Positions 6,441-16,030 of a stretch of 31,279 nt of DNA are shown here, in pieces; position 1 is the first letter of the stretch, and each line of letters starts with the position of its first letter. The position numbers and the translations under genes are program-made. The notes under the pieces were generated by a model. It was given only the letters and a program-made list of their open reading frames with translations. It was not told the origin of the DNA and did not search any database. The DNA is taken from positions 1 to 31,279 of IMG/VR virus record IMGVR_UViG_2974515140_000001, one strand, 5' to 3'. Origin of the DNA: a virus. Its lineage: Duplodnaviria > Heunggongvirae > Uroviricota > Caudoviricetes > Ackermannviridae.

Positions 6441-9284
6441 ATGGCCAACAAACCAACACAGCCTCTTTTCCCTTTGGGTTTAGAAACTTCGGAGTCTTCG
6501 AACATAAAAGGCTTCAATAACTCCGGCATCATAGAGCATTCTCCTGGTGCGGTGTTGACGTTCCCTGAAGATACTGTTGTTGCAGGTCTTCCATCTTCTG
6601 TGCGTTACAATCCTGACAGTGATGAATTTGAAGGCTATTACGAAAACGGCGGGTGGTTGTCTTTGGGCGGCGGTGGAATACGCTGGGAAACGCTCCCACA
6701 CGCTCCCTCCAGCAATTTGTTAGAAGGTCGCGGTTATCTCATTAATAATACGACAGGGACTTCTACAGTGGTTCTCCCTTCCCCTACGCGCGTTGGTGAT
6801 TCAGTTACAATTTGTGATGCCTATGGGAAATTCGCGACGTATCCATTGACTGTATCCCCAGCAGGAAATAACCTGTACGGATCCACCGAAGATATGACGA
6901 TATCCACCGATAACGTGTCGGCGACTTTCACTTGGTCTGGTGCCGAGCAGGGTTGGGTTGTTACATCTGGTGTTGGCCTCGGTCAGGGGCGTGTCTACAG
7001 CCGCGAGATTTACACCCAGATTTTGGCGTCTATCACAAGTGAAGTCACTCTGAGTACTCCACCCACAATCGTTGACGTGTATGCTGACGGAAAACGTCTC
7101 ACAGAATCCAAATATTCATTAAATGAAAATGTGATCACTTTTAGTCCTTCTTTATCTGCCGGAACTGAACTTCAGGTGATAGAATACACTCCTATCCAAT
7201 TGGGTACTGGCGGCGGGGGTTCGGGCGCTTCTGTAATCACCTGGATTTATAATGGCGGCTCTGCTGTCGGTGGTGAGACTGAGATCACATTAGACGTCGT
7301 TGTTGATGATGTTCCGGCTATTGATATAAACGGGTCTCGCCAGTACAAAAATCTGGGATTCACATTTGATCCATTAACCAGCAAAATCACTCTTGCGCAG
7401 GAATTAGACGCAGGGGATGAAGTCGTTGTCATTATCAATGGAACGCCGAACATCTATAATCAGATTGATCGTTCTTTACAGGAAATTGCTCGTTCATCCA
7501 ATGTTAAAGATAGTGAAGTCATTTTAAGCACAAACACCACTCAGCCATTAAATGGGATGAAGGTAATTTATTCTGTATCTGAGCAGAAGTCTTATGGTCT
7601 ACCGGCATTACCTAATAATATCTACATACAGACAGTAGCTAACGGTAAGTTGGTATACAATCCTGGTTCTGTGGAAGTAGACCTACCCCTTTTACCCAAT
7701 GAGGAAACAACCAAAGAGTTGGTAGATTTTCGTAATAATATTACTTCTTCTACTGGTATTAGTGTAATTGGTGTGGGGCAAACTACGCTTGATAAAACTA
7801 TTTTCTGGGGTACTCCAGAACAATACGGTGGTGGTTTGGGGGGAGACGATACTGCGGCTATAGCAGCTTGCATAGCTAACCATAAACTTATGGTGCTATC
7901 CGACAAAACATATAACGCTACCGAAGTAGTATTAAACCCAGATACTTGTGTATGGGGTGTTGGCAAGACAAAAAGTATTATTAAAGCTTCTGCTCCAACA
8001 GGTTTCTTTTTCCAGGTAAGAGGCGCTGGCGGAGTGGGTTACTCTGGCGAAGTAAGTGGAATCGGGGTAGACGGTAACAGATTAGTAGACTGGACTGGTT
8101 ATTTTGGTGGAGATGCTACTACTACTGTAACCAAAGCAACTATTCGTAATAGTGCATTTCGTAATGGTATCAAAGCTAACGTTGTATTGGATGCCGTGCA
8201 GAATTCACTTTTCATGGACCTTGATGTTGCTAATGCTGTGGACTTTGAGGGTCAACGTGGTATTTACCTGGTAAACGGCGCAGGTAATAACATGATTATG
8301 AACCTTGAGTGCAGCGGCGGCTCTATCGGCAGCATAGTTATGGGACGAGACGCTGGTTTCCCTTGCTGGCCACTCAACACTTTTACTAGGAACAATACAA
8401 ACAACACAATTACCCGTTGTATTGGCGAGAGTATATCCGTAGAGGCAGTGTTGGCTAATCGTAAACGTTCTGTTCTTCTCGAGTACGCTAACTCAAACAC
8501 TTTTTCTGAGTGTGATTTGGTTACGCATGGTACATATGGAGACTGTGCGGTTAAGATAACGGATACATGCTCTTACAACACCTTTGACAACGTATCATTT
8601 GGTAGCAACCCTTCTGGTTCTATCCCTGCTATCATTAACCAAGGATTTAACACCCGTGTATTTGGTGGCAACATGGATGGCTTTGGTTCGCCAGAGATAA
8701 CCACAACCCAGGGAATAATGGTAAGAGATTGTCGAAACTTAGCAGGTGATTACGTAAAAGTACAAAACCTGGCTGGTAACACGAATGCTAATATCCAAGG
8801 TACTGTTAAATACAGTGAAACTTCTGGAGATACTTTACCAACATTCAACAATCCTAATGATATTGTATGTGATAATGATGGTCGTGTATGGGCTACTCGT
8901 GGCACTTCCTTCGGTGAATCTGTACAGTTCCTTACTGGGTATCAACGATCATATACTAATACGATGACCATAGACGCTGGTGTAGGTTCTACAGGATTAC
9001 AGTTGCCAGGATTTGGGGTGTACGAGATTGAAGTTGCACTGAAGGACAATGCAGATGGGTCTCATAGGGCCACCTTTGCAGCTCGCGTATCCTTCCACTC
9101 AGGTGTACAGTCACTGAATGAATCAACTATTACTGCAAACTTGGCAGCCACGGATGGGCAATTTAATACTCCTGCTATAGCTACATCAACTAGTGGTTTT
9201 GTTACTTTGAATGTAAATGTGTCATCTATTACATCAGCCACAATACGTATCAACCTAGTACGTAAAATTGACTTAGGCTTTTGA
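6441..9284 (+). CDS. TSP4: tailspike TSP4 (baseplate anchor and XD domains, TSP2-type head, beta-helix receptor-binding module), 947 aa
   Basis: N-terminus MANKPTQPLFPLGLETSESS... is the Kuttervirus TSP4 anchor. GGDDTAAIAAC is a beta-helix entry motif, followed by pectate-lyase-like repeats. Receptor specificity not identifiable. Confidence 0.9.
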   Translation: MANKPTQPLFPLGLETSESSNIKGFNNSGIIEHSPGAVLTFPEDTVVAGLPSSVRYNPDSDEFEGYYENGGWLSLGGGGIRWETLPHAPSSNLLEGRGYLINNTTGTSTVVLPSPTRVGDSVTICDAYGKFATYPLTVSPAGNNLYGSTEDMTISTDNVSATFTWSGAEQGWVVTSGVGLGQGRVYSREIYTQILASITSEVTLSTPPTIVDVYADGKRLTESKYSLNENVITFSPSLSAGTELQVIEYTPIQLGTGGGGSGASVITWIYNGGSAVGGETEITLDVVVDDVPAIDINGSRQYKNLGFTFDPLTSKITLAQELDAGDEVVVIINGTPNIYNQIDRSLQEIARSSNVKDSEVILSTNTTQPLNGMKVIYSVSEQKSYGLPALPNNIYIQTVANGKLVYNPGSVEVDLPLLPNEETTKELVDFRNNITSSTGISVIGVGQTTLDKTIFWGTPEQYGGGLGGDDTAAIAACIANHKLMVLSDKTYNATEVVLNPDTCVWGVGKTKSIIKASAPTGFFFQVRGAGGVGYSGEVSGIGVDGNRLVDWTGYFGGDATTTVTKATIRNSAFRNGIKANVVLDAVQNSLFMDLDVANAVDFEGQRGIYLVNGAGNNMIMNLECSGGSIGSIVMGRDAGFPCWPLNTFTRNNTNNTITRCIGESISVEAVLANRKRSVLLEYANSNTFSECDLVTHGTYGDCAVKITDTCSYNTFDNVSFGSNPSGSIPAIINQGFNTRVFGGNMDGFGSPEITTTQGIMVRDCRNLAGDYVKVQNLAGNTNANIQGTVKYSETSGDTLPTFNNPNDIVCDNDGRVWATRGTSFGESVQFLTGYQRSYTNTMTIDAGVGSTGLQLPGFGVYEIEVALKDNADGSHRATFAARVSFHSGVQSLNESTITANLAATDGQFNTPAIATSTSGFVTLNVNVSSITSATIRINLVRKIDLGF

Positions 9285-9291
9285 TTCCTAA

Positions 9292-9312
9292 ACCCCTACT
9301 GTTAAGTGGGGG
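9292..9312 (+). terminator. hairpin / putative intrinsic terminator after TSP4
   Basis: ACCCCTAC-TGTTAA-GTGGGGGT followed by ACTTTT. Confidence 0.55.
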
Positions 9313-9320
9313 TACTTTTA

Positions 9321-9411
9321 GAAAACAATGAGGTTGTTATGAACGAACTGTTTTCACAAGGTCGTGCGATATCAGCTAACAAAATCAGTAACTAGACACT
9401 TTGGAATATAA
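9321..9411 (+). pseudogene. relic 5' end of a TSP1-type tailspike gene (RBS + MNELFSQG...NK/SVTRHFGI*, frameshifted)
   Basis: GAAAACAATGAGGTTGTT ATG AAC GAA CTG TTT TCA CAA GGT parallels the TSP1 start GAAAAACAATGAGGTACTT ATG AAC GAA ATG TTT AGT CAA GGT (14011-14053). AGACACTTTGG is shared with 14099-14109. Confidence 0.85.
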
Positions 9412-9437
9412 TTCTCCTGTCGGTTCTTCTGTATAAC

Positions 9438-9474
9438 CTAAATACCCCATATTGGTCATCCTTTATGGGGTATT
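9438..9474 (+). promoter_or_regulatory. late promoter CTAAATA plus SD-occluding hairpin (TSP3)
   Basis: CTAAATA at 9438-44; AATACCCCATA (9441-51) / TATGGGGTATT (9464-74), an 11-bp stem. Confidence 0.8.
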
Positions 9475-9477
9475 ATC

Positions 9478-11574
9478 ATGATTTCTCAATTCAATCAACC
9501 ACGCGGCTCCACTTCCATAGAAGTTAACAAACAATCTATCGCTCGAAATTTCGGTGTCAAAGAAGACGAAGTCATTTATTTCACTGCTGGTATTGATCTC
9601 AGTGGATTTAAAGTAATTTATGATGAGTCTACCCAACGGGCTTATTCTCTTCCTTCAGGTATTGTTTCAGGAACGACTGCGATAAGTCTGAACGAACAAG
9701 CCATCCTCACTCATTCTTCTGGCTCTGTTGATCTCGGGGAATTAGCAGTAAGTCGCGAAGAATATGTGACTTTACCTGGTTCTTTTAATTTCGGCCATAC
9801 CATTAATGTGAAAAATGAACTTCTTGTTCACGATGATAAAAAATATCGATGGGATGGTTCACTTCCTAAAACTGTCGATGCTGGCTCAACACCTGAAACA
9901 TCTGGTGGCGTTGGTTTAGGTGCATGGTTGAGTGTTGGTGACGCAGCATTTAGGCAGGAAGCCAACAAAAAATTCAAATATTCAGTAAAGTTATCTGATT
10001 ATTCTACATTACAGGATGCAGCGACAGCAGCCGTAGATGGATTGCTTATTGATGTTGACTACACTTTTACTGCAGATGAGAGTGTAGATTTTAGCGGTAA
10101 AGTTTTAATCATTGAATGCAAAGGAAAATTCATTGGCGATGGTATGTTGGTTTGGAATGGTTTGGGTGCGGGTTCAGTAATTAAGAAACCGCACATGCAT
10201 ACTAAAACTACGCCGTATACTGTTTACCGATTCGATGCAAACGGTAATTGGGTTACAGACCCAACACAAGTTCTGGCATCTGTTCAGCAGCGTTTGGATG
10301 TTGGATATAAGCCAAATATTAACGATTTAGATATTTGGGACGACCTTCCTGATAATGTAAAAAATCAGGTTGCTGGTGCTACTTTGCGAATAATGAGCGG
10401 CGATAATATCATCGTAGAGAACCCAGAAGCTACATTTGGTGGTTATCTATTTACTTTATGTAATAGGATTCTTGTTAAGAATCCACGCAATTTTATTGCT
10501 TTGGAATCGGGTATTACATTTGAGAACCATCATACAACTGCATGGGGTACTGGCAACTGGGTTGTTGGGGGTGAGATTAAATATGGCTCTGGTTCCGCTG
10601 TACTGTTCATTCGCAATGATGGTGGTACAGACCATGATGGTGGAGTAAGGGATTTAATCTCATACCGTGTTGGAGAATCAGGTACTAAAACCTATCAGAA
10701 CGAAATTGGAGGTCGTTCAGCCAGGAACTACCGTTTAGTGTTCGACAATATAACTACAATCCAGTGTTACTATGATGGTATTGATGTTAATGCTGACACA
10801 GGGTCGCCAACTGAACGTGTGGATGACTACTCACTCGCAGAGTATCCATGGTTCCACCTACCTACTCAACATATCATCCGTAATATTATTACTCGTGATT
10901 GTATGGGGATTGGTGCTTGGTGGGATGGTCAGAAAAATATTATTGATAATGTTGTTACTTATGAGGCCCATAAGGAAGGCGTCTTCGATAGGGGTACTAA
11001 CAATGATATTACTAACATTACTGTAGTAGGTGCGAATAAGGATTTAACTAACCTAAATCAGATTACCTGTGAGGGAGGTAGTAGACTTCGTGGTATTAAC
11101 ATCCATGCATATACTACACAAGGTTACGCTATATACGCTCCGTCTTCAGAAGTAAGTAATGTTTCCTGTGCTGGTTCCGGTACTAAGAAATTACTATGTA
11201 CCTATATAAGCGATATTCAGGGAGGTAATATCAATGTTCAGCATAGTGCCAACCAAATGACACTTGCAATGCAACCTGCTATGGGTGGTACTACAAACCC
11301 ATCTTTGCTTATGACGGCAGATTGCCAGGTTGCTACACCAGGGGGTGAGGCAAGTATTGTCAAGCTTTCGGCAATTCAGGAGGGTGTACGTGTAGGTGAG
11401 TTTCAGCTTAACCGCTTAGGCTTTAAGCATATGAGTATACCTGCTGCCCCTTTACAATTACCAGAGAGCGCTCTGGAACATAATTCATCTATAGGATTCT
11501 TCTTCGGAAGTGACGGAGCATTGAGGTTGCTTGCTAAAAAACCAGATGGAAGTTATGTAACATACACACTTTAA
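9478..11574 (+). CDS. TSP3: tailspike TSP3, P22/Det7-family O-antigen endoglycosidase (698 aa)
   Basis: TSP3 head MISQFNQPRGSTSIEVNKQSIARNFG. Body resembles P22 tailspike (YSVKLSDYSTLQDAA.AAVDGLLID, KFIGDG). Catalytic-type motifs YRVGESG and YDGID are present; C-terminus LLAKKPDGS. Confidence 0.92.
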   Translation: MISQFNQPRGSTSIEVNKQSIARNFGVKEDEVIYFTAGIDLSGFKVIYDESTQRAYSLPSGIVSGTTAISLNEQAILTHSSGSVDLGELAVSREEYVTLPGSFNFGHTINVKNELLVHDDKKYRWDGSLPKTVDAGSTPETSGGVGLGAWLSVGDAAFRQEANKKFKYSVKLSDYSTLQDAATAAVDGLLIDVDYTFTADESVDFSGKVLIIECKGKFIGDGMLVWNGLGAGSVIKKPHMHTKTTPYTVYRFDANGNWVTDPTQVLASVQQRLDVGYKPNINDLDIWDDLPDNVKNQVAGATLRIMSGDNIIVENPEATFGGYLFTLCNRILVKNPRNFIALESGITFENHHTTAWGTGNWVVGGEIKYGSGSAVLFIRNDGGTDHDGGVRDLISYRVGESGTKTYQNEIGGRSARNYRLVFDNITTIQCYYDGIDVNADTGSPTERVDDYSLAEYPWFHLPTQHIIRNIITRDCMGIGAWWDGQKNIIDNVVTYEAHKEGVFDRGTNNDITNITVVGANKDLTNLNQITCEGGSRLRGINIHAYTTQGYAIYAPSSEVSNVSCAGSGTKKLLCTYISDIQGGNINVQHSANQMTLAMQPAMGGTTNPSLLMTADCQVATPGGEASIVKLSAIQEGVRVGEFQLNRLGFKHMSIPAAPLQLPESALEHNSSIGFFFGSDGALRLLAKKPDGSYVTYTL

Positions 11575-11647: not shown

Positions 11648-11685
11648 CTAAATACCCCATATTGGCAAATCCTTATGGGGTATTT
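11648..11685 (+). promoter_or_regulatory. late promoter CTAAATA plus SD-occluding hairpin (TSP2)
   Basis: CTAAATA at 11648-54; AAATACCCCATA (11650-61) / TATGGGGTATTT (11674-85), a 12-bp stem. Near-identical to the TSP3 leader. Confidence 0.8.
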
Positions 11686-11689
11686 TCAA

Positions 11690-13978
11690 ATGACCAGAAA
11701 TGTAGAAGAATTATTCGGCGGCGTAATCACAGCTCCCCACCAGATTCCTTTCACGTATAAATCAAATGTCGGTGGAGAAACTTTCCTTTCCTTGCCGTTC
11801 TATCCTGTCACTGGCGTAGTCACAATCAACGGTGGTATGCAAGTTCCGTTAGACAACTTTGAAATCGAAGGAAATACGTTGAATCTCGGGCGCGCATTGT
11901 CCAAAGGCGATGTTGTGTATTGCTTATTCGATAAAATTCTTTCGCCAGAAGATACAGCCAAAGGTATCCGCATATACAAATTTCAGGCCGTAGGAGGTGA
12001 AACCGAGTTCACTCCTGATTTCACATCTTATGGAGTCCAATCTCTTTATATCGGTGGTGAGTACAAAACACCCGAAATTGAATATTCCTATGACAGCACG
12101 ACAGGGAAAGTATCTTTGCAAACTGCACTGACTGCAGGCGTTTGGGTAGTCGCTGAAATGTCTGTTAAACAGCCGAATATCAGTCCGTTGTTTGACCGAA
12201 GTATTCAAGAAATCGCCCGTTCTGCTAATGTTAAAGACTCTGAAGTCATCGTTAGTACGGACACCATATCTTTGTTGGATGGGAAGAAAGTCGTATTTGA
12301 TGTAATTGCACAGAAATCATACGGATTACCTACATTACCTACTAACGTATTTATTTCTTCTGTTAATGGTAACCAATTAACATACAATCCTGGTGGGGTT
12401 GTTGTTGACCTGCTCCCTGCACCTAATGATGTAACTCCAGTGGAGAATGAGTTGCAGGCGTATAAAACGGCTATGGCTACTGATGGGGGAACGTTAGTAA
12501 ATTCTGGTTTATCTGGAGTTTCTTCTGCAATTAAGCGATCCATTGATAGCCATTTTAAAGACTACTACAACGTTAAAGATTTTGGTGCTGTGGGGGATGG
12601 TGTAACTGATGATACTGATGCTATTCAATTAGCGGTGGCATATCTTGGAGACTTAACCACTAAAACTATGTTTAGTAGGCCGTCTGTATTGTTTTTCCCT
12701 GATGGTGATTACTTAACTAGTAAGCCTATTATAGCATGGGATGGTGTTAGTATACGCGGTGCATCCCAATCCTCTACCAGGATTGGGATGACTTCTTCTA
12801 CTAATACTACAGAAGTCACTACTAACTCTCCTGTCAGGAATCTTCCGCGTAATGTTAACTGTATTATTGCAGTTTTCTCTTCTGTGGCAGGTTATCCGTA
12901 TAGAACTACTATCTCAGATATTCAACTGTATGGTATAGCTGGCACGACTGGAGTAACTACAGGTAAGGTAGTTCACGCAATCTATGCACCGGAAGCAGCA
13001 TTTCTAACCGTGGAAAGAGTACGTACTTGGTATACAAATTATGGCATTATGTCATATAACTTGTGGATGTGTTCTTTCCGAGACTTAGATTTACGTGAAC
13101 ATGCTGAATGGAGTTTCTTACTATCTAATGATGGTACGGGTGCGGGGGGTTCTACATCTATTTCCCTAGAACGAGTATATGGGCATACTAGTGAAGGGGG
13201 CATTAAACTATACGGAGCCAATTATTCTACACTGTCTTCCTGTGGAGTAGACGCAGCAGGTTCGTCTAATCCCTCCGCAGCGGATGCGGCATCTAAAGCC
13301 CCATATGTATTTGAAAGTTGTCAGGGTCTTGTAGCTAGTTCTTTAGGTGCAGAATCTATTTATACAAGACGTTGTATCTTTATTATTGGTGGGCATGTAA
13401 CCCTTAATGAGCCTGATTTATACGCTTGGCGTGGTGATGTTACTGGACGGCGTATGTATGGTATACACATTACTTCCAATGGTAACTTGGTCCTAAATGG
13501 TGGGCGACTCTGGGGTATTCAATTTAGTGCAGCATCCGCTACAGAGTGTTTTGCCATAGCACAGTCTGATGGTATTAACGGTTCTGTTCAATGCAATGGG
13601 TCATTAATTTCTGATGCTTCTGTTGATTCAGGTGGTACAGCGATTGGTAATATTTTCTTTGGTTCTCGTACTTATAGAGGTAGAACCATTCAGCAAGAGG
13701 CGGGAGTATCTAGATACCAGACTAATACTGTAACCCTTACTGCAAGTGTTACTACAGGTGATTTATTCTCATCTGGCTTAGATACTACAAGGTATACTGT
13801 AATAGATGCTGTAGCCCAAATGAACAGTAGTTCTCCTACCTTAGACCAAGCAAAATTGCATGTACAAGTTATGAATGTCAGTGCAAATAGTGCTCGAATT
13901 TGGATTATTAACCCAGATGGTACAGCTAATTTTACTGCCCAAAATTTACGTGTGACTTTTACTTATAGAGTAAATTAA
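11690..13978 (+). CDS. TSP2: tailspike TSP2 (XD domains, head, beta-helix), 762 aa from ATG 11690
   Basis: N-terminus MTRNVEELFGGVITAPHQIPF is Kuttervirus TSP2. NVKDFGAVGDGVTDDTDAIQ is a pectate-lyase-3-type entry motif. The start at 11690 is chosen by analogy with the GGGG-N7/8-ATG spacing of TSP3 and TSP4. Confidence 0.9.
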   Translation: MTRNVEELFGGVITAPHQIPFTYKSNVGGETFLSLPFYPVTGVVTINGGMQVPLDNFEIEGNTLNLGRALSKGDVVYCLFDKILSPEDTAKGIRIYKFQAVGGETEFTPDFTSYGVQSLYIGGEYKTPEIEYSYDSTTGKVSLQTALTAGVWVVAEMSVKQPNISPLFDRSIQEIARSANVKDSEVIVSTDTISLLDGKKVVFDVIAQKSYGLPTLPTNVFISSVNGNQLTYNPGGVVVDLLPAPNDVTPVENELQAYKTAMATDGGTLVNSGLSGVSSAIKRSIDSHFKDYYNVKDFGAVGDGVTDDTDAIQLAVAYLGDLTTKTMFSRPSVLFFPDGDYLTSKPIIAWDGVSIRGASQSSTRIGMTSSTNTTEVTTNSPVRNLPRNVNCIIAVFSSVAGYPYRTTISDIQLYGIAGTTGVTTGKVVHAIYAPEAAFLTVERVRTWYTNYGIMSYNLWMCSFRDLDLREHAEWSFLLSNDGTGAGGSTSISLERVYGHTSEGGIKLYGANYSTLSSCGVDAAGSSNPSAADAASKAPYVFESCQGLVASSLGAESIYTRRCIFIIGGHVTLNEPDLYAWRGDVTGRRMYGIHITSNGNLVLNGGRLWGIQFSAASATECFAIAQSDGINGSVQCNGSLISDASVDSGGTAIGNIFFGSRTYRGRTIQQEAGVSRYQTNTVTLTASVTTGDLFSSGLDTTRYTVIDAVAQMNSSSPTLDQAKLHVQVMNVSANSARIWIINPDGTANFTAQNLRVTFTYRVN

Positions 13979-13985
13979 TTTTTAC

Positions 13986-14001
13986 CCCCTCTTCGGAGGG
14001 G
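13986..14001 (+). terminator. cUUCGg hairpin between TSP2 and TSP1 (terminator or stabilising stem)
   Basis: CCCCTC-TTCG-GAGGGG followed by only TTTCT. Confidence 0.6.
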
Positions 14002-14029
14002 TTTCTCCTAGAAAAACAATGAGGTACTT

Positions 14030-16030
14030 ATGAACGAAATGTTTAGTCAAGGTGGTAAAGGTTCGACTGGAATCTTAACCAATAAACAAGCAGTAGCCAG
14101 ACACTTTGGTGTTAAACAATCTGAGGTTGTTTATGCCAAAGCGGGACAGTCATTGTCTGGTTATAAAGTGATCTACGATAAGTTGTCTCAACGTGCCTAC
14201 GCTCTCCCTTCTAACATTGGTGCTGTAACGGTCACCAGTTTGGTCGACGGCATCCTCACACACTCTGGAGGAACTGTAGATTTGGGTGCGCTGGCCGTAT
14301 TGCGTGAGGAATACGTCATTCTGATAGAAAATTTCACTTCTGGATTTACGATTCGTGTCAAGAACGAAGTCGTGAGCGATGGGGTATACTTGTATCGTTG
14401 GGATGGGGAACTCCCAAAGATCGTACCTCCTTCTTCTACGCCTTTGAATTCTGGTGGGATCGGAGTTGGTAAGTGGGTTCTTAGTGATAGAACGAAGGCC
14501 GAACTTGGAAGTTCTTCTGGAGCCGGGATGAGTGGGTTTGACCCATTCTATACGTACCCTGATAAAACAGTTGGGAATTATTTGTCACAAGTGCCAGGGT
14601 CAGATAATACAGGCATGAATAATTCTTTGGATTCGTTTAATGCAGCCATCTTGAAACTCGCTCTTAAAGGTGGGGGTGTCCTTCACCCAGAGCCGGGAAT
14701 TTACAAAATATCCGGCGGGTCGGTTTTACTCCCATCATATGTTACTTTGGATCTTCGTGGGTGTGAACTTCGTGGCGATGGGAAAGGGACAAACACACTC
14801 ATAGCTTCTGGGTGGGTCGAAAATGGGACTCTGATAGATATTACGCCAGAATATGGAACCGGCGGCGGTGATGGCAATGGAACTCACTTCGTTATACAAG
14901 CCCGCGTGTTTGGTGGCAAGCTGACCAATGCCGGGATAGGCATCCGAGGCCAACGTTTTAACTACGGCACCACCATAGAGGGTGTATGGTTCGAAAATTC
15001 GCTTTCTCAGGGTTGGTTTACAACTCATTCATGGGGGTTAAAAGTAACACGTTGTTTGGCTCGCGCGACTTGTAAGATGCTGGACTTTGTTGATTGGACC
15101 GAGGTTTCAAACAATGATTTTGAAGGTCTTGCATATTTCGTTTCTGGTTACGTGGGCCTGATCATTGGAACTGGTGGATACGGGGGTAGTTACAGTTGCC
15201 GTATTATATCCAATGGGTTCCACCAAATGGAGACAGCCATAAAACTTGAAGGTGAAATAGACGATTTAGTTATTGAAAGTAACCATTATGAACGTACCGT
15301 ATACCATGTGGTGGGTGATCAATACACGAAGACTAATTTCCGAATCAAACATAACTGGATGAAAGCAAACCTTGCACACCCAGATGACCCGAGTCTGGAA
15401 CCACCAACCAAACCTGGTGTTATCCCTATGGTTTTCCAGAACCTGAAAGATTCAGACATCGGGCCAAACAGATTTACGAATGATTCCGGCTCTACTTATT
15501 CAGCACACATTGTGGCCACTGGTGATGAATGTTACGGCAACCGCTACTATGTTGGTTACAAAACAGATGTTGATAACGATTTTTCAAAAATCCAGATGTC
15601 TAATGCAAACGCGTTGTATGTTATGCGTGGTTCTAACAACTCCACGATTTCCCAACCTAGCATTGAATTACGATCTGGTAGTGCGGCATATACTGTAGAG
15701 AAGTACAAAGCTAGCTACAACATGCAACTAAACAAGATTCCACTTTGTGATGTTTATCTAGATGGTTCTGGAAACGCGACCGTCACCACTTGGTTCCAAC
15801 AGAGCGACCAATTACTTGGAGCCTTCAGTTTCAGGTTTGTTGGTAGTTCAGCAACTGCGGTCGTTGCTGGAACATTCTGCTATGATACAGCGAATGTGAC
15901 TATCAACAAAATATCCTCCGGTGGGTCGTTACCAATCGCTATTGGTGCTGCCGGAGATGGGAGATTAACCATATCTTTTGCACAAGTCCCGGTCGGCGCA
16001 AGCATTACAGGTTGGGTTAAACAATTGTAA
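14030..16030 (+). CDS. TSP1: tailspike TSP1 (two head domains plus beta-helix), 666 aa
   Basis: N-terminus MNEMFSQGGKGSTGILTNKQAVARHFG is Kuttervirus TSP1. Head is homologous to the TSP3 head (VDLG.LAV.REEYV, YRWDG.LPK). GAGG SD present. Confidence 0.9.
   Translation: MNEMFSQGGKGSTGILTNKQAVARHFGVKQSEVVYAKAGQSLSGYKVIYDKLSQRAYALPSNIGAVTVTSLVDGILTHSGGTVDLGALAVLREEYVILIENFTSGFTIRVKNEVVSDGVYLYRWDGELPKIVPPSSTPLNSGGIGVGKWVLSDRTKAELGSSSGAGMSGFDPFYTYPDKTVGNYLSQVPGSDNTGMNNSLDSFNAAILKLALKGGGVLHPEPGIYKISGGSVLLPSYVTLDLRGCELRGDGKGTNTLIASGWVENGTLIDITPEYGTGGGDGNGTHFVIQARVFGGKLTNAGIGIRGQRFNYGTTIEGVWFENSLSQGWFTTHSWGLKVTRCLARATCKMLDFVDWTEVSNNDFEGLAYFVSGYVGLIIGTGGYGGSYSCRIISNGFHQMETAIKLEGEIDDLVIESNHYERTVYHVVGDQYTKTNFRIKHNWMKANLAHPDDPSLEPPTKPGVIPMVFQNLKDSDIGPNRFTNDSGSTYSAHIVATGDECYGNRYYVGYKTDVDNDFSKIQMSNANALYVMRGSNNSTISQPSIELRSGSAAYTVEKYKASYNMQLNKIPLCDVYLDGSGNATVTTWFQQSDQLLGAFSFRFVGSSATAVVAGTFCYDTANVTINKISSGGSLPIAIGAAGDGRLTISFAQVPVGASITGWVKQL

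Follow-up and report, generated by a model that had tools for sequence, protein, structure and literature searches.

A mosaic TSP4 tailspike gene with a TSP2/gp66-type head and a decayed TSP1-type gene start behind it in a Kuttervirus-type tailspike cluster

How does a tailspike that serves as the baseplate-anchored hub of a spike complex come to carry a head domain resembling that of another spike, and why is its gene followed by what looks like the beginning of a further tailspike gene? These questions are raised by TSP4 in the window, the stretch of 31,279 nucleotides (nt) that we analysed here and that comprises positions 1 to 31,279 of the IMG/VR record IMGVR_UViG_2974515140_000001, from a virus of the Ackermannviridae. 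This phage is of the Salmonella/E. coli type, and TSP4 is one of its four spikes for host recognition. The window holds a Kuttervirus-type tailspike cluster on its plus strand, and the order of open reading frames (ORFs) in the window and in 15 related loci shows that TSP4 is the first gene of tsp4-tsp3-tsp2-tsp1, located 3' of the baseplate wedge genes; the transcription order in phage CBA120 (orf213 to orf210) is identical. By its anchor with domains XD1-XD3 and its position in the cluster, TSP4 is an Ackermannviridae baseplate-anchored hub tailspike. The gene is also a mosaic, the distal part of which is foreign to CBA120-type TSP4. The most economical account of this mosaic is one import event, and the main rival is an assembly in several steps. 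In what follows, L labels (L001-L033) denote genomic loci or clusters used for comparison, and P labels (P0010 and so on) individual protein sequences. TSP4 and its parts are as follows.

6441-9284, plus strand: TSP4, 947 amino acids (aa), stop codon TGA at 9282-9284
6441-7466, plus strand: TSP4 anchor, consisting of the baseplate-binding N-terminus and XD1-XD3 (T4 gp10-like), aa 1-342; 90-94% aa identity to Kuttervirus TSP4 N-termini
7467-7700, plus strand: single TD1 head of the TSP2/gp66 type, aa 343-420, with no TD2 after it; match to 6w4q, none to PF18668
7701-7760, plus strand: neck or linker, aa 421-440 (PNEETTKELVDFRNNITSSTGI), with no detectable relative
7761-9284 including the stop, plus strand: receptor-binding module, aa ~441-947, a right-handed beta-helix and C-terminal beta-sandwich as judged from homologues and AlphaFold2

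CBA120 TSP4 (orf213) shares with the window TSP4 its slot, the anchor with XD1-XD3, and the role as the baseplate-attached hub of a branched spike complex, and residues 1-339 of the window protein match the CBA120 TSP4 N-terminal structures 7rej and 7rfo (E 7e-207, phmmer against PDB). The nucleotide identity profile of the anchor is patchy, ranging from 70 to 100%. Beyond the anchor the two genes part: CBA120 TSP4 carries a tandem TD1-TD2, whereas the single TD1 of the window TSP4 belongs to another subtype and stands without a TD2; the receptor modules are unrelated; and a plain terminator and promoter stand 3' of the CBA120 gene, where the window has the relic of a gene start instead.

The head of TSP4 and its left boundary

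From residue 343 (nt 7467), TSP4 reads DRSLQEIARSSNVKDSEVILS...SVSEQKSYGLPALP...YNPGSVEVDL (the head is also quoted as DRSLQEIARSSNVKDSEVILS...SVSEQKSYGLPALPNNIYIQTVANGKLVYNPGSVEVDL), and it is 61.5% identical over 78 aa to the head of TSP2 in the same genome, which begins at nt 12194 (DRSIQEIARSANVKDSEVIVS...). The only PDB matches of the TSP4 head were to CBA120 TSP2 (6w4q, residues 169-248, E 5e-21) and to two G7C-like fibre entries, with no match in the PDB to TSP1, TSP3 or TSP4 heads. These results bear out the original prediction, made from the letters of this DNA before any database search, that TSP4 has a single TSP2-type head at about 7467. The same prediction held that TSP4 lacks the second head domain found in TSP1 and TSP3. 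In agreement with this, Pfam family PF18668 (Tail_spike_N, the REEYV...YRWDG domain, which corresponds to TD2) matched TSP3 and TSP1 and did not match TSP4, where there is no YRWDG motif. TD1 domains of the CBA120 type are only 41-43% identical to the TSP4 head, and no tandem TD1-TD2 with GTTAVSL was found in the window TSP4. Both head domains are present in CBA120 TSP4, as the original prediction had it and as we read from NC_016570, and in 10 of 11 other Kuttervirus TSP4s.

The nearest heads lie in the TSP2 slot, with P0023 and P0021 at 78% and TSP2 of Salmonella phage SeKF_19 at 76% (head at aa ~173). The best head in the gp66 slot of G7C-like podophages, P0027, reaches 75%, or 76% over the 78-aa core (head at aa ~302). 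Among 145 locally detected head matches, 131 were in TSP2, gp66 or TSP4 positions, that is, behind an XD3-type domain, and 83 were gp66-slot heads. In a tree of 150 heads (150 rows, 80 columns), the five rows nearest to the TSP4 head were all from the TSP2 slot. CBA120 TSP2 (orf211, 6w4q) and the G7C gp66-type fibres (relatives of PDB 9d80/9d83) likewise have a single TD1 directly after XD3. They differ from the window TSP4 in possessing their own N-terminal anchor (two XD domains, or a podophage adaptor part) and their own receptor modules. Behind them come a hairpin, a ribosome-binding site and an intact MNEMFSQGG-type spike gene, whereas the window has a fossil of the same arrangement at 9285-9404.

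Identity between the window TSP4 and other Kuttervirus TSP4 genes is 75-100% up to ~7490 and 40-58% by 7520. This collapse places the left crossover at ~7490-7520, within the conserved TD1 5' end and ~20-50 nt into the head, and not at ~7467, where the imported segment had been predicted to start. Over its first 60 nt the head resembles TSP4-slot heads (77-78%) more than TSP2 heads (68-70%); from nt 61 on it is closer to the heads of TSP2 (72%) and gp66 (71%) than to those of TSP4 (66% and 53%). The first 18 nt (GATCGTTCTTTACAGGAA) are identical to those of ECML-4-type TSP4, while TSP2 matches at only 12 of the 18 positions. We considered the ECML-4 type as the recipient on the basis of this identity and rejected it, since 18 nt are too short and the anchor just upstream is nearer to the CBA120 type. 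ECML-4 TSP4 (YP_009101511) resembles the window TSP4 in having a single TD1, no TD2 and six identical codons at the start of the head, but its head is only 39% identical and of another subtype, its module differs, and its 50-nt intergenic region is without a relic.

Kuttervirus TSP1, TSP3 and TSP4 have been described as swapping their receptor modules at the GTTAVSL motif of TD1, and in the same study the TD1 of TSP2 was unlike that of any other Kuttervirus spike, apart from one poorly matching TSP4 subtype, and TSP2 lay outside the swap network (Sorensen et al. 2021, PMC8432352). The window TSP4 is similar to these swaps in that a module appears to have passed from one spike slot to another, the breakpoint lying within TD1 or close to it. 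It differs from them in that a TD1 of the TSP2/gp66 type sits on TSP4, the GTTAVSL motif is missing, and the breakpoint is at the start of TD1 and not at its end.

The relic behind TSP4

The region between TSP4 and TSP3, and the intact junction with which we compared it, contain the following features.

9290-9338, plus strand: GC-rich hairpin, then the ribosome-binding site TAGAAAACAATGAGGTTGTT; by fold and alignment, a TSP2-to-TSP1-type junction
9339-9404, plus strand: decayed TSP1-type gene start, with an 18-codon ORF MNELFSQGRAISANKISN from 9339 and a stop at 9393-9395, by alignment and blastn
9405-9439, plus strand: filler with 3' half CGGTTCTTCTGTATAACCT, without a match in any fetched locus
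9438-9477, plus strand: conserved late-promoter-type box CTAAATACCCC with inverted repeat ACCCCATA/TATGGGGT, just 5' of TSP3 (ATG at 9478)
13979-14100, plus strand: intact TSP2-to-TSP1 junction of the same genome (hairpin, ribosome-binding site, MNEMFSQGGKGSTGILTNKQAVARHFG), the comparator

Alignment of 18 junctions, 16 of them from other loci, confirmed the earlier claim that TSP4 is followed by a hairpin and a decayed TSP1 start, as TSP2 is followed by an intact one. Positions 9285-9404 are collinear with TSP2-to-TSP1 and gp66-to-gp63.1 junctions, in the order hairpin, TAGAAAAACAATGAGGT, ATG AAC GAA xTG TTY TCA CAA GGT, and the late promoter box is absent from this stretch, which is thus a junction of the TSP2-to-TSP1 (gp66-to-gp63.1) type. 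The hairpin folds with -16.6 kcal/mol (z -2.8), and its loop (CTGTTAAGTGGGG) is most like the CTTAACTGGGG hairpins located 3' of the nearest-head genes in L023, L024 and L025, a weak concordance. The relic reads ATG AAC GAA CTG TTT TCA CAA GGT..., and its likeness to TSP1 ends at ...AGACACTTTGG (9404); its lesions are the stop and a 14-nt deletion relative to intact TSP1 genes. A blastn search with the 116-nt relic yielded 133 phage records with one site each, at E values down to 8e-9 and 82-89% identity to TSP1/gp63.1-type starts. Where annotated, all of these matches were the starts of tailspike or tail-fibre genes, and none followed a TSP4. No copy of the relic turned up when IMG/VR and JGI metagenomes were scanned for exact patterns.

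In Kutterviruses, TSP4 and TSP3 are each normally followed by a terminator and then the box CTAAATACCCCATATTGG...TATGGGGTATT, and TSP2 only by a ~50-nt hairpin and ribosome-binding site; correspondingly, the late-promoter-type box precedes TSP3 and TSP2 in all Kuttervirus loci and is absent before TSP1. A TSP1 stump was found 3' of TSP4 in none of the 11 other Kuttervirus clusters, which have a terminator and promoter at this place or, as in ECML-4 (L007), a bare 50-nt gap. The relic is therefore not a general companion of TSP4 in this genus; had it been one, this would, according to the original prediction, have told against an import.

A second phage carries the same arrangement. The 14-kb metagenomic contig L022 encodes a TSP4 with 7 aa differences from the window TSP4, and its intergenic region is 98% identical to that of the window (95-98% for the relic), with the same deletion and the same stop, while its TSP3, TSP2 and TSP1 differ from the window genes. 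The relic is older than the split of the two phages. Identity between the window and L022 is 99.4% in the module, 97.9% in the head, 96.4% in the anchor and ~94% in the upstream backbone, and the excess of the module over the backbone indicates that head, module and relic behave as one transferable unit. The two phages differ at 7 of 120 positions in the relic and at 9 of 1584 in the module. Relaxed selection on the relic was considered, and these counts were too small to claim it.

The relic is short (~115 nt) and was found in no more than two genomes and a single sequencing run, which may be that of the source sample, so one might put it down to coincidence or misassembly and take the gene for an ordinary TSP4 subtype. 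We consider this very improbable, given that the likeness is collinear over the hairpin, the ribosome-binding site, the start codon and at least 20 codons, with the E values given above, and that an independent metagenomic assembly reproduces the relic together with its lesions.

No source was found among the fetched loci for the 35-nt filler that follows the relic (9405-9439). Its 3' half, which by eye resembles ...CGGGGTTCTTATTATACCT, may be the eroded tail of the standard Kuttervirus post-TSP4 terminator. It is conceivable, as a matter of speculation, that crossover occurred through microhomology at the CTTTGG common to the TSP1 start and to the standard terminator loop; behind this CTTTGG lies an unexplained insert of 16 nt.

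Stumps of gene starts were also observed in other genera. In the type of Klebsiella phage Menlow (L017:15120-15223..15719), TSP2 is followed by ATGAATAGGATGTTCACACAACCCACTGGTCCAGTAGGAACCCAAACCAATAAGTAG and a short decayed TSP1-type start (MNRMFTQPTGPVGTQTNK, then a stop), located 5' of an intact TSP1-type gene; this stump is of the same kind as the window relic. In Phapecoctavirus ECML-183-2, an unannotated gap (L033:4480-4841) contains a hairpin and ribosome-binding site and then a 103-aa frame that consists of a TSP1-type TD1 only (MNEMFSQGGKGSTGILTNK...SVDLGELDVS), and that may be either a stump or a small docking-domain protein.

The receptor-binding module and the origin of the cassette

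An AlphaFold2 model of the module (predicted local distance difference test score, pLDDT, 83.6) shows a right-handed beta-helix and a C-terminal beta-sandwich, and Foldseek assigned it a probability of 1.0 to many phage tailspikes, none of them close (template modelling score, TM, 0.3-0.47). The spike very probably binds or depolymerises a polysaccharide. Phages and prophages of the Salmonella and Citrobacter types contain the relatives of the module. Four metagenomic spikes and SeKF_19 TSP1 have 73-75% aa identity to it, and Citrobacter-type prophage spikes 48-52% (48% for the P22-type prophage spikes of Citrobacter); for spikes of single-spike phages, which have other N-termini, the values are 74-75% and 52%. 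The closest named relative, SeKF_19 TSP1 (WWQ71081.1, 73.6% aa identity from ...IGVGQTTLDK to the last residue), occupies the TSP1 slot behind a TD1-TD2 head, and its likeness to the window TSP4 ends at the stop codon. No homologue of the module in a TSP4 slot was found in the phage collection, among 5.8 billion protein clusters or among 1.84 billion representatives; closest homologues that all lay at TSP4 positions without a TSP1 relic were the other outcome that, according to the original prediction, would have told against an import. In an exhaustive search of the 1.84 billion representatives, no second protein spanned both head and module.

Three module relatives, P0010, P0011 and P0014, were considered as junction donors and rejected, as they come from single-spike siphophage-like or temperate phage regions with no TSP1-type start on their 3' side. 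P0014 (L029/L030:6975-9908) adjoins an O-antigen glycosylation operon (gtrA/GT2/STM0557-like) in a temperate-phage-like region, which is consistent with an O-antigen receptor for the module family.

That head, neck, module, hairpin and gene start were imported en bloc from a tsp2-tsp1 or gp66-gp63.1-type locus has, in our estimation, an even chance of being correct. The normal TSP4 anchor (aa 1-342) would have been kept, and everything from ~20-50 nt inside the first head domain onward would have been replaced by a foreign cassette, most likely in one piece, consisting of the TD1 head, the neck, the beta-helix module, the stop, the hairpin with its ribosome-binding site, and the first ~65-110 nt of the donor's next gene. 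The donor would have had an XD3-TD1-module gene followed by a MNEMFSQGG-type tailspike gene, a layout found in the tsp2-tsp1 loci of Ackermannviridae and in the gp66-gp63.1 loci of G7C-like podophages. The left crossover would have taken place at the conserved TD1 5' end, and the right end would have landed illegitimately in or near the old TSP4 terminator, leaving a TSP1-start stump that later decayed through the 14-nt deletion and the stop. TSP3 would have kept its own promoter and been unaffected. After such an event, the baseplate-anchored spike would probably recognise a different surface polysaccharide, with the XD1-3 docking surfaces for the other three spikes intact.

An architecture of this kind is viable, as indicated by the laboratory recombinant S117-tsp5, in which the N-terminus of a Kuttervirus TSP4 was joined to the receptor-binding part of Det7 TSP2 and which was infectious on a new host (Sorensen et al. 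2024, PMC11414711). There, as proposed for the window TSP4, recombination joined a foreign receptor part to a TSP4 N-terminus. S117-tsp5, however, arose from an engineered construct under CRISPR counter-selection, whereas the event in the window would be natural and old, with another module and with a stump downstream.

A number of observations weigh against an import in one piece, or against an origin specifically in a TSP2 locus. No donor was found for the cassette, and import en bloc is thus something that we infer, as are the type of the donor locus and an altered host range. The expectation that the best matches of the module would be TSP2-position genes failed: its nearest relatives are in the TSP1 slot (SeKF_19 and a mislabelled Kuttervirus contig, 73-74%), followed by the single-spike phages and P22-type prophage spikes, and no TSP2- or gp66-slot gene with the module was found in the GenBank phage set (protein and DNA), in the 5.8 billion protein clusters, in the 1.84 billion representatives, or with a module profile in IMG/VR. 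These relatives carry TD1-TD2 or other N-termini. The 20-residue neck aligns neither with TSP2 necks nor with the post-TD2 linker of the module relatives, and this orphan neck suggests that head and module may have been joined separately.

The subtype of the head occurs on TSP4 of another Ackermannviridae lineage (P0030, 72%, head at aa ~343), in a genome with an ordinary terminator and promoter 3' of TSP4, and also at the TSP4-slot position in P0100, so that it is not exclusive to the TSP2 slot. In the sampled Ackermannviridae clusters outside Kuttervirus (L012-L014, L016 and L017), TSP4 normally carries one TD1 behind XD3, and TSP4 of the Kuttervirus ECML-4 (of the L007 type) likewise has a single TD1 and no TD2. 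Because the same subtype is found on non-Kuttervirus TSP4 and on gp66, the head is no proof of a TSP2 origin. Identities of 72-78% over 78 aa do not discriminate between slots, and in the tree of 150 heads no supported clade contains the TSP4 head and the slot label switches 17-21 times, so the tree does not decide the slot of origin. At the nucleotide level, every candidate donor is only 66-72% identical, which points to an old event or to a donor lineage outside the present sampling. Scars like the one on the right also occur elsewhere than in TSP2 loci, since L015 has a hairpin, ribosome-binding site and TSP1-like start directly after TSP4, and ECML-183-2 has such a junction as a stump with no TSP2-like gene upstream. 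Finally, as between an Ackermannviridae phage and a G7C-like podophage, the gp66-gp63.1 layout fits the donor as well as TSP2-TSP1 does. The predicted import from the TSP2-TSP1 junction of another phage is therefore upheld in respect of the mosaic, the nearness of the head to TSP2-slot heads and the type of junction, and not in respect of a donor, of a module from the TSP2 slot, or of a head and junction peculiar to that slot.

Many of these observations would fit a stepwise mosaic, to which we assign an appreciable but less than even probability. The single TD1 would then come from the TSP4 lineage, the module would have been joined to it separately, and the relic would be the stump of a deleted extra TSP1-like gene, which either encoded a fifth spike or occupied the TSP3 slot and began like TSP1. 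The TSP4s with one TD1 and no TD2 in L012-L014, L016, L017 and ECML-4/L007, the P0030 head of the same subtype, and the beginning of the window head, in which the first 18 nt equal those of the ECML-4 type and the first 60 nt are nearer to TSP4-slot heads, can all be read in this way, as can the succession of TSP4, hairpin, ribosome-binding site and TSP1-like start in L015, the TSP1-type relatives of the module, and the orphan neck. Such a history, however, requires at least two or three events where one would suffice, and from nt 61 on no TSP4 head is as close to the window head as those of TSP2 and gp66 are. The P0030 TSP4, moreover, is followed by an ordinary terminator and promoter, and among the loci examined there was no Kuttervirus with five spikes and none with a MNEMFSQGG-type gene after TSP4.

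Returning to the import in one piece, a special case of it is a donor that was specifically a G7C-like (Gamaleyavirus) podophage, with gp66-gp63.1 exchanged across families and tail types. The gp66-slot heads (N-terminus MNAHTPFDANQDW) make up the 83 of 145 local matches mentioned above and reach 75% identity (76% over the 78-aa core), the L024 gp66-gp63.1 junction tops the aligned junctions (69% to the relic, against 63-67%) and has a similar hairpin loop, and the best full-length blastn matches of the relic include the G7C-like phages E20 and F22 (84.7%). Nevertheless, these differences come to a few nucleotides out of ~120 and a few residues out of 78, the heads of the TSP2 slot (78%) are slightly nearer, and Kuttervirus TSP2 genes with the same head subtype exist in LPST94 and SeKF_19. 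We regard this donor as unlikely.

A more general and somewhat doubtful view, which we put forward tentatively, is that TD1 head, module, hairpin with ribosome-binding site and MNEMFSQGG-type first codons form a portable cassette that moves across slots (TSP2, gp66, TSP4) and families (Ackermannviridae myophages, G7C-like podophages, Phapecoctavirus). Homology would be supplied on the left by the conserved TD1 5' end and on the right by that of TSP1, and TSP1-start stumps, such as those in the window, ECML-183-2 and Menlow, would be a regular by-product of right arms that land at places with no TSP1-type gene behind them. If this were true, stumps could be used to reconstruct donor contexts and the host-range history of these phages.

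Exchange of tailspike modules is the main route of host change in these broad-host-range phages and is exploited in engineering phages for detection and therapy. The window TSP4 is a natural counterpart of this known modular exchange with a contextual scar, and represents no new mechanism. A natural TSP4 with a TSP2/gp66-type head indicates that a cassette of this kind is compatible with the hub position, in agreement with the 2024 laboratory chimera, and the downstream stump provides rare direct evidence on the layout of the donor locus.

Neighbouring genes and spacers in related loci

The remaining genes of the cluster and the gene that follows it are listed below.

9478-11574, plus strand: TSP3, 698 aa
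11675 (more likely 11690)-13978, plus strand: TSP2, 767 aa counted from 11675
14030-16030, plus strand: TSP1, 666 aa
16127-20965, plus strand: VriC-like gene, 1612 aa

The box CTAAATACCCCATATTGG(6-7 nt)CCTTTATGGGGTATT, found in the window at 9438-9477 and 11650-11689 and in the Ackermannviridae loci L001-L017, precedes TSP3 and TSP2, and TSP2 in other genera. Its 8-bp inverted repeat ACCCCATA/TATGGGGT ends a few bases 5' of the start codon, and the element pairs a late-promoter-like sequence with a hairpin over the ribosome-binding region. The ATG at 11675 with which the TSP2 ORF begins (MGYFQM...) falls within the inverted repeat of this conserved element, and in the CBA120 annotation orf211 begins at the second ATG (MTRNVEELFGG); the real start of TSP2 in the window is probably 11690.

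Spacers in other loci also showed irregularities. In L022, the TSP3-to-TSP2 spacer (L022:9037-9366) is 330 nt long, compared with ~100 nt elsewhere, and contains ~280 nt without identification between the terminator and the promoter box. In SeKF_19 (L001:3851-3960; also L002, L009 and L010), the TSP4 subtype is followed by ~90 extra bases, comprising a patch like the 3' end of a P22-type TSP3 gene (AAAAGACCAGACGGA... compared with AAAAAACCAGATGGA...) and then a terminator identical to the post-TSP3 one. This stretch may be a different relic of module transfer, its likeness being weak outside the terminator. In L004 (L004:18586-19258, the IMG/VR copy of a 157,013-bp Kuttervirus), the TSP1 gene has a normal start, but its frame breaks at GGGGGGG ~170 nt into the gene, through either a frameshift or a sequencing error. 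The record L002 (OR844942.1, 'Enterococcus phage Efm 3-10', UNVERIFIED_ORG, 111 kb) contains a complete Kuttervirus tsp4-3-2-1 cluster nearly identical to that of SeKF_19, and its organism or host label is almost certainly wrong, owing to contamination or a mix-up.

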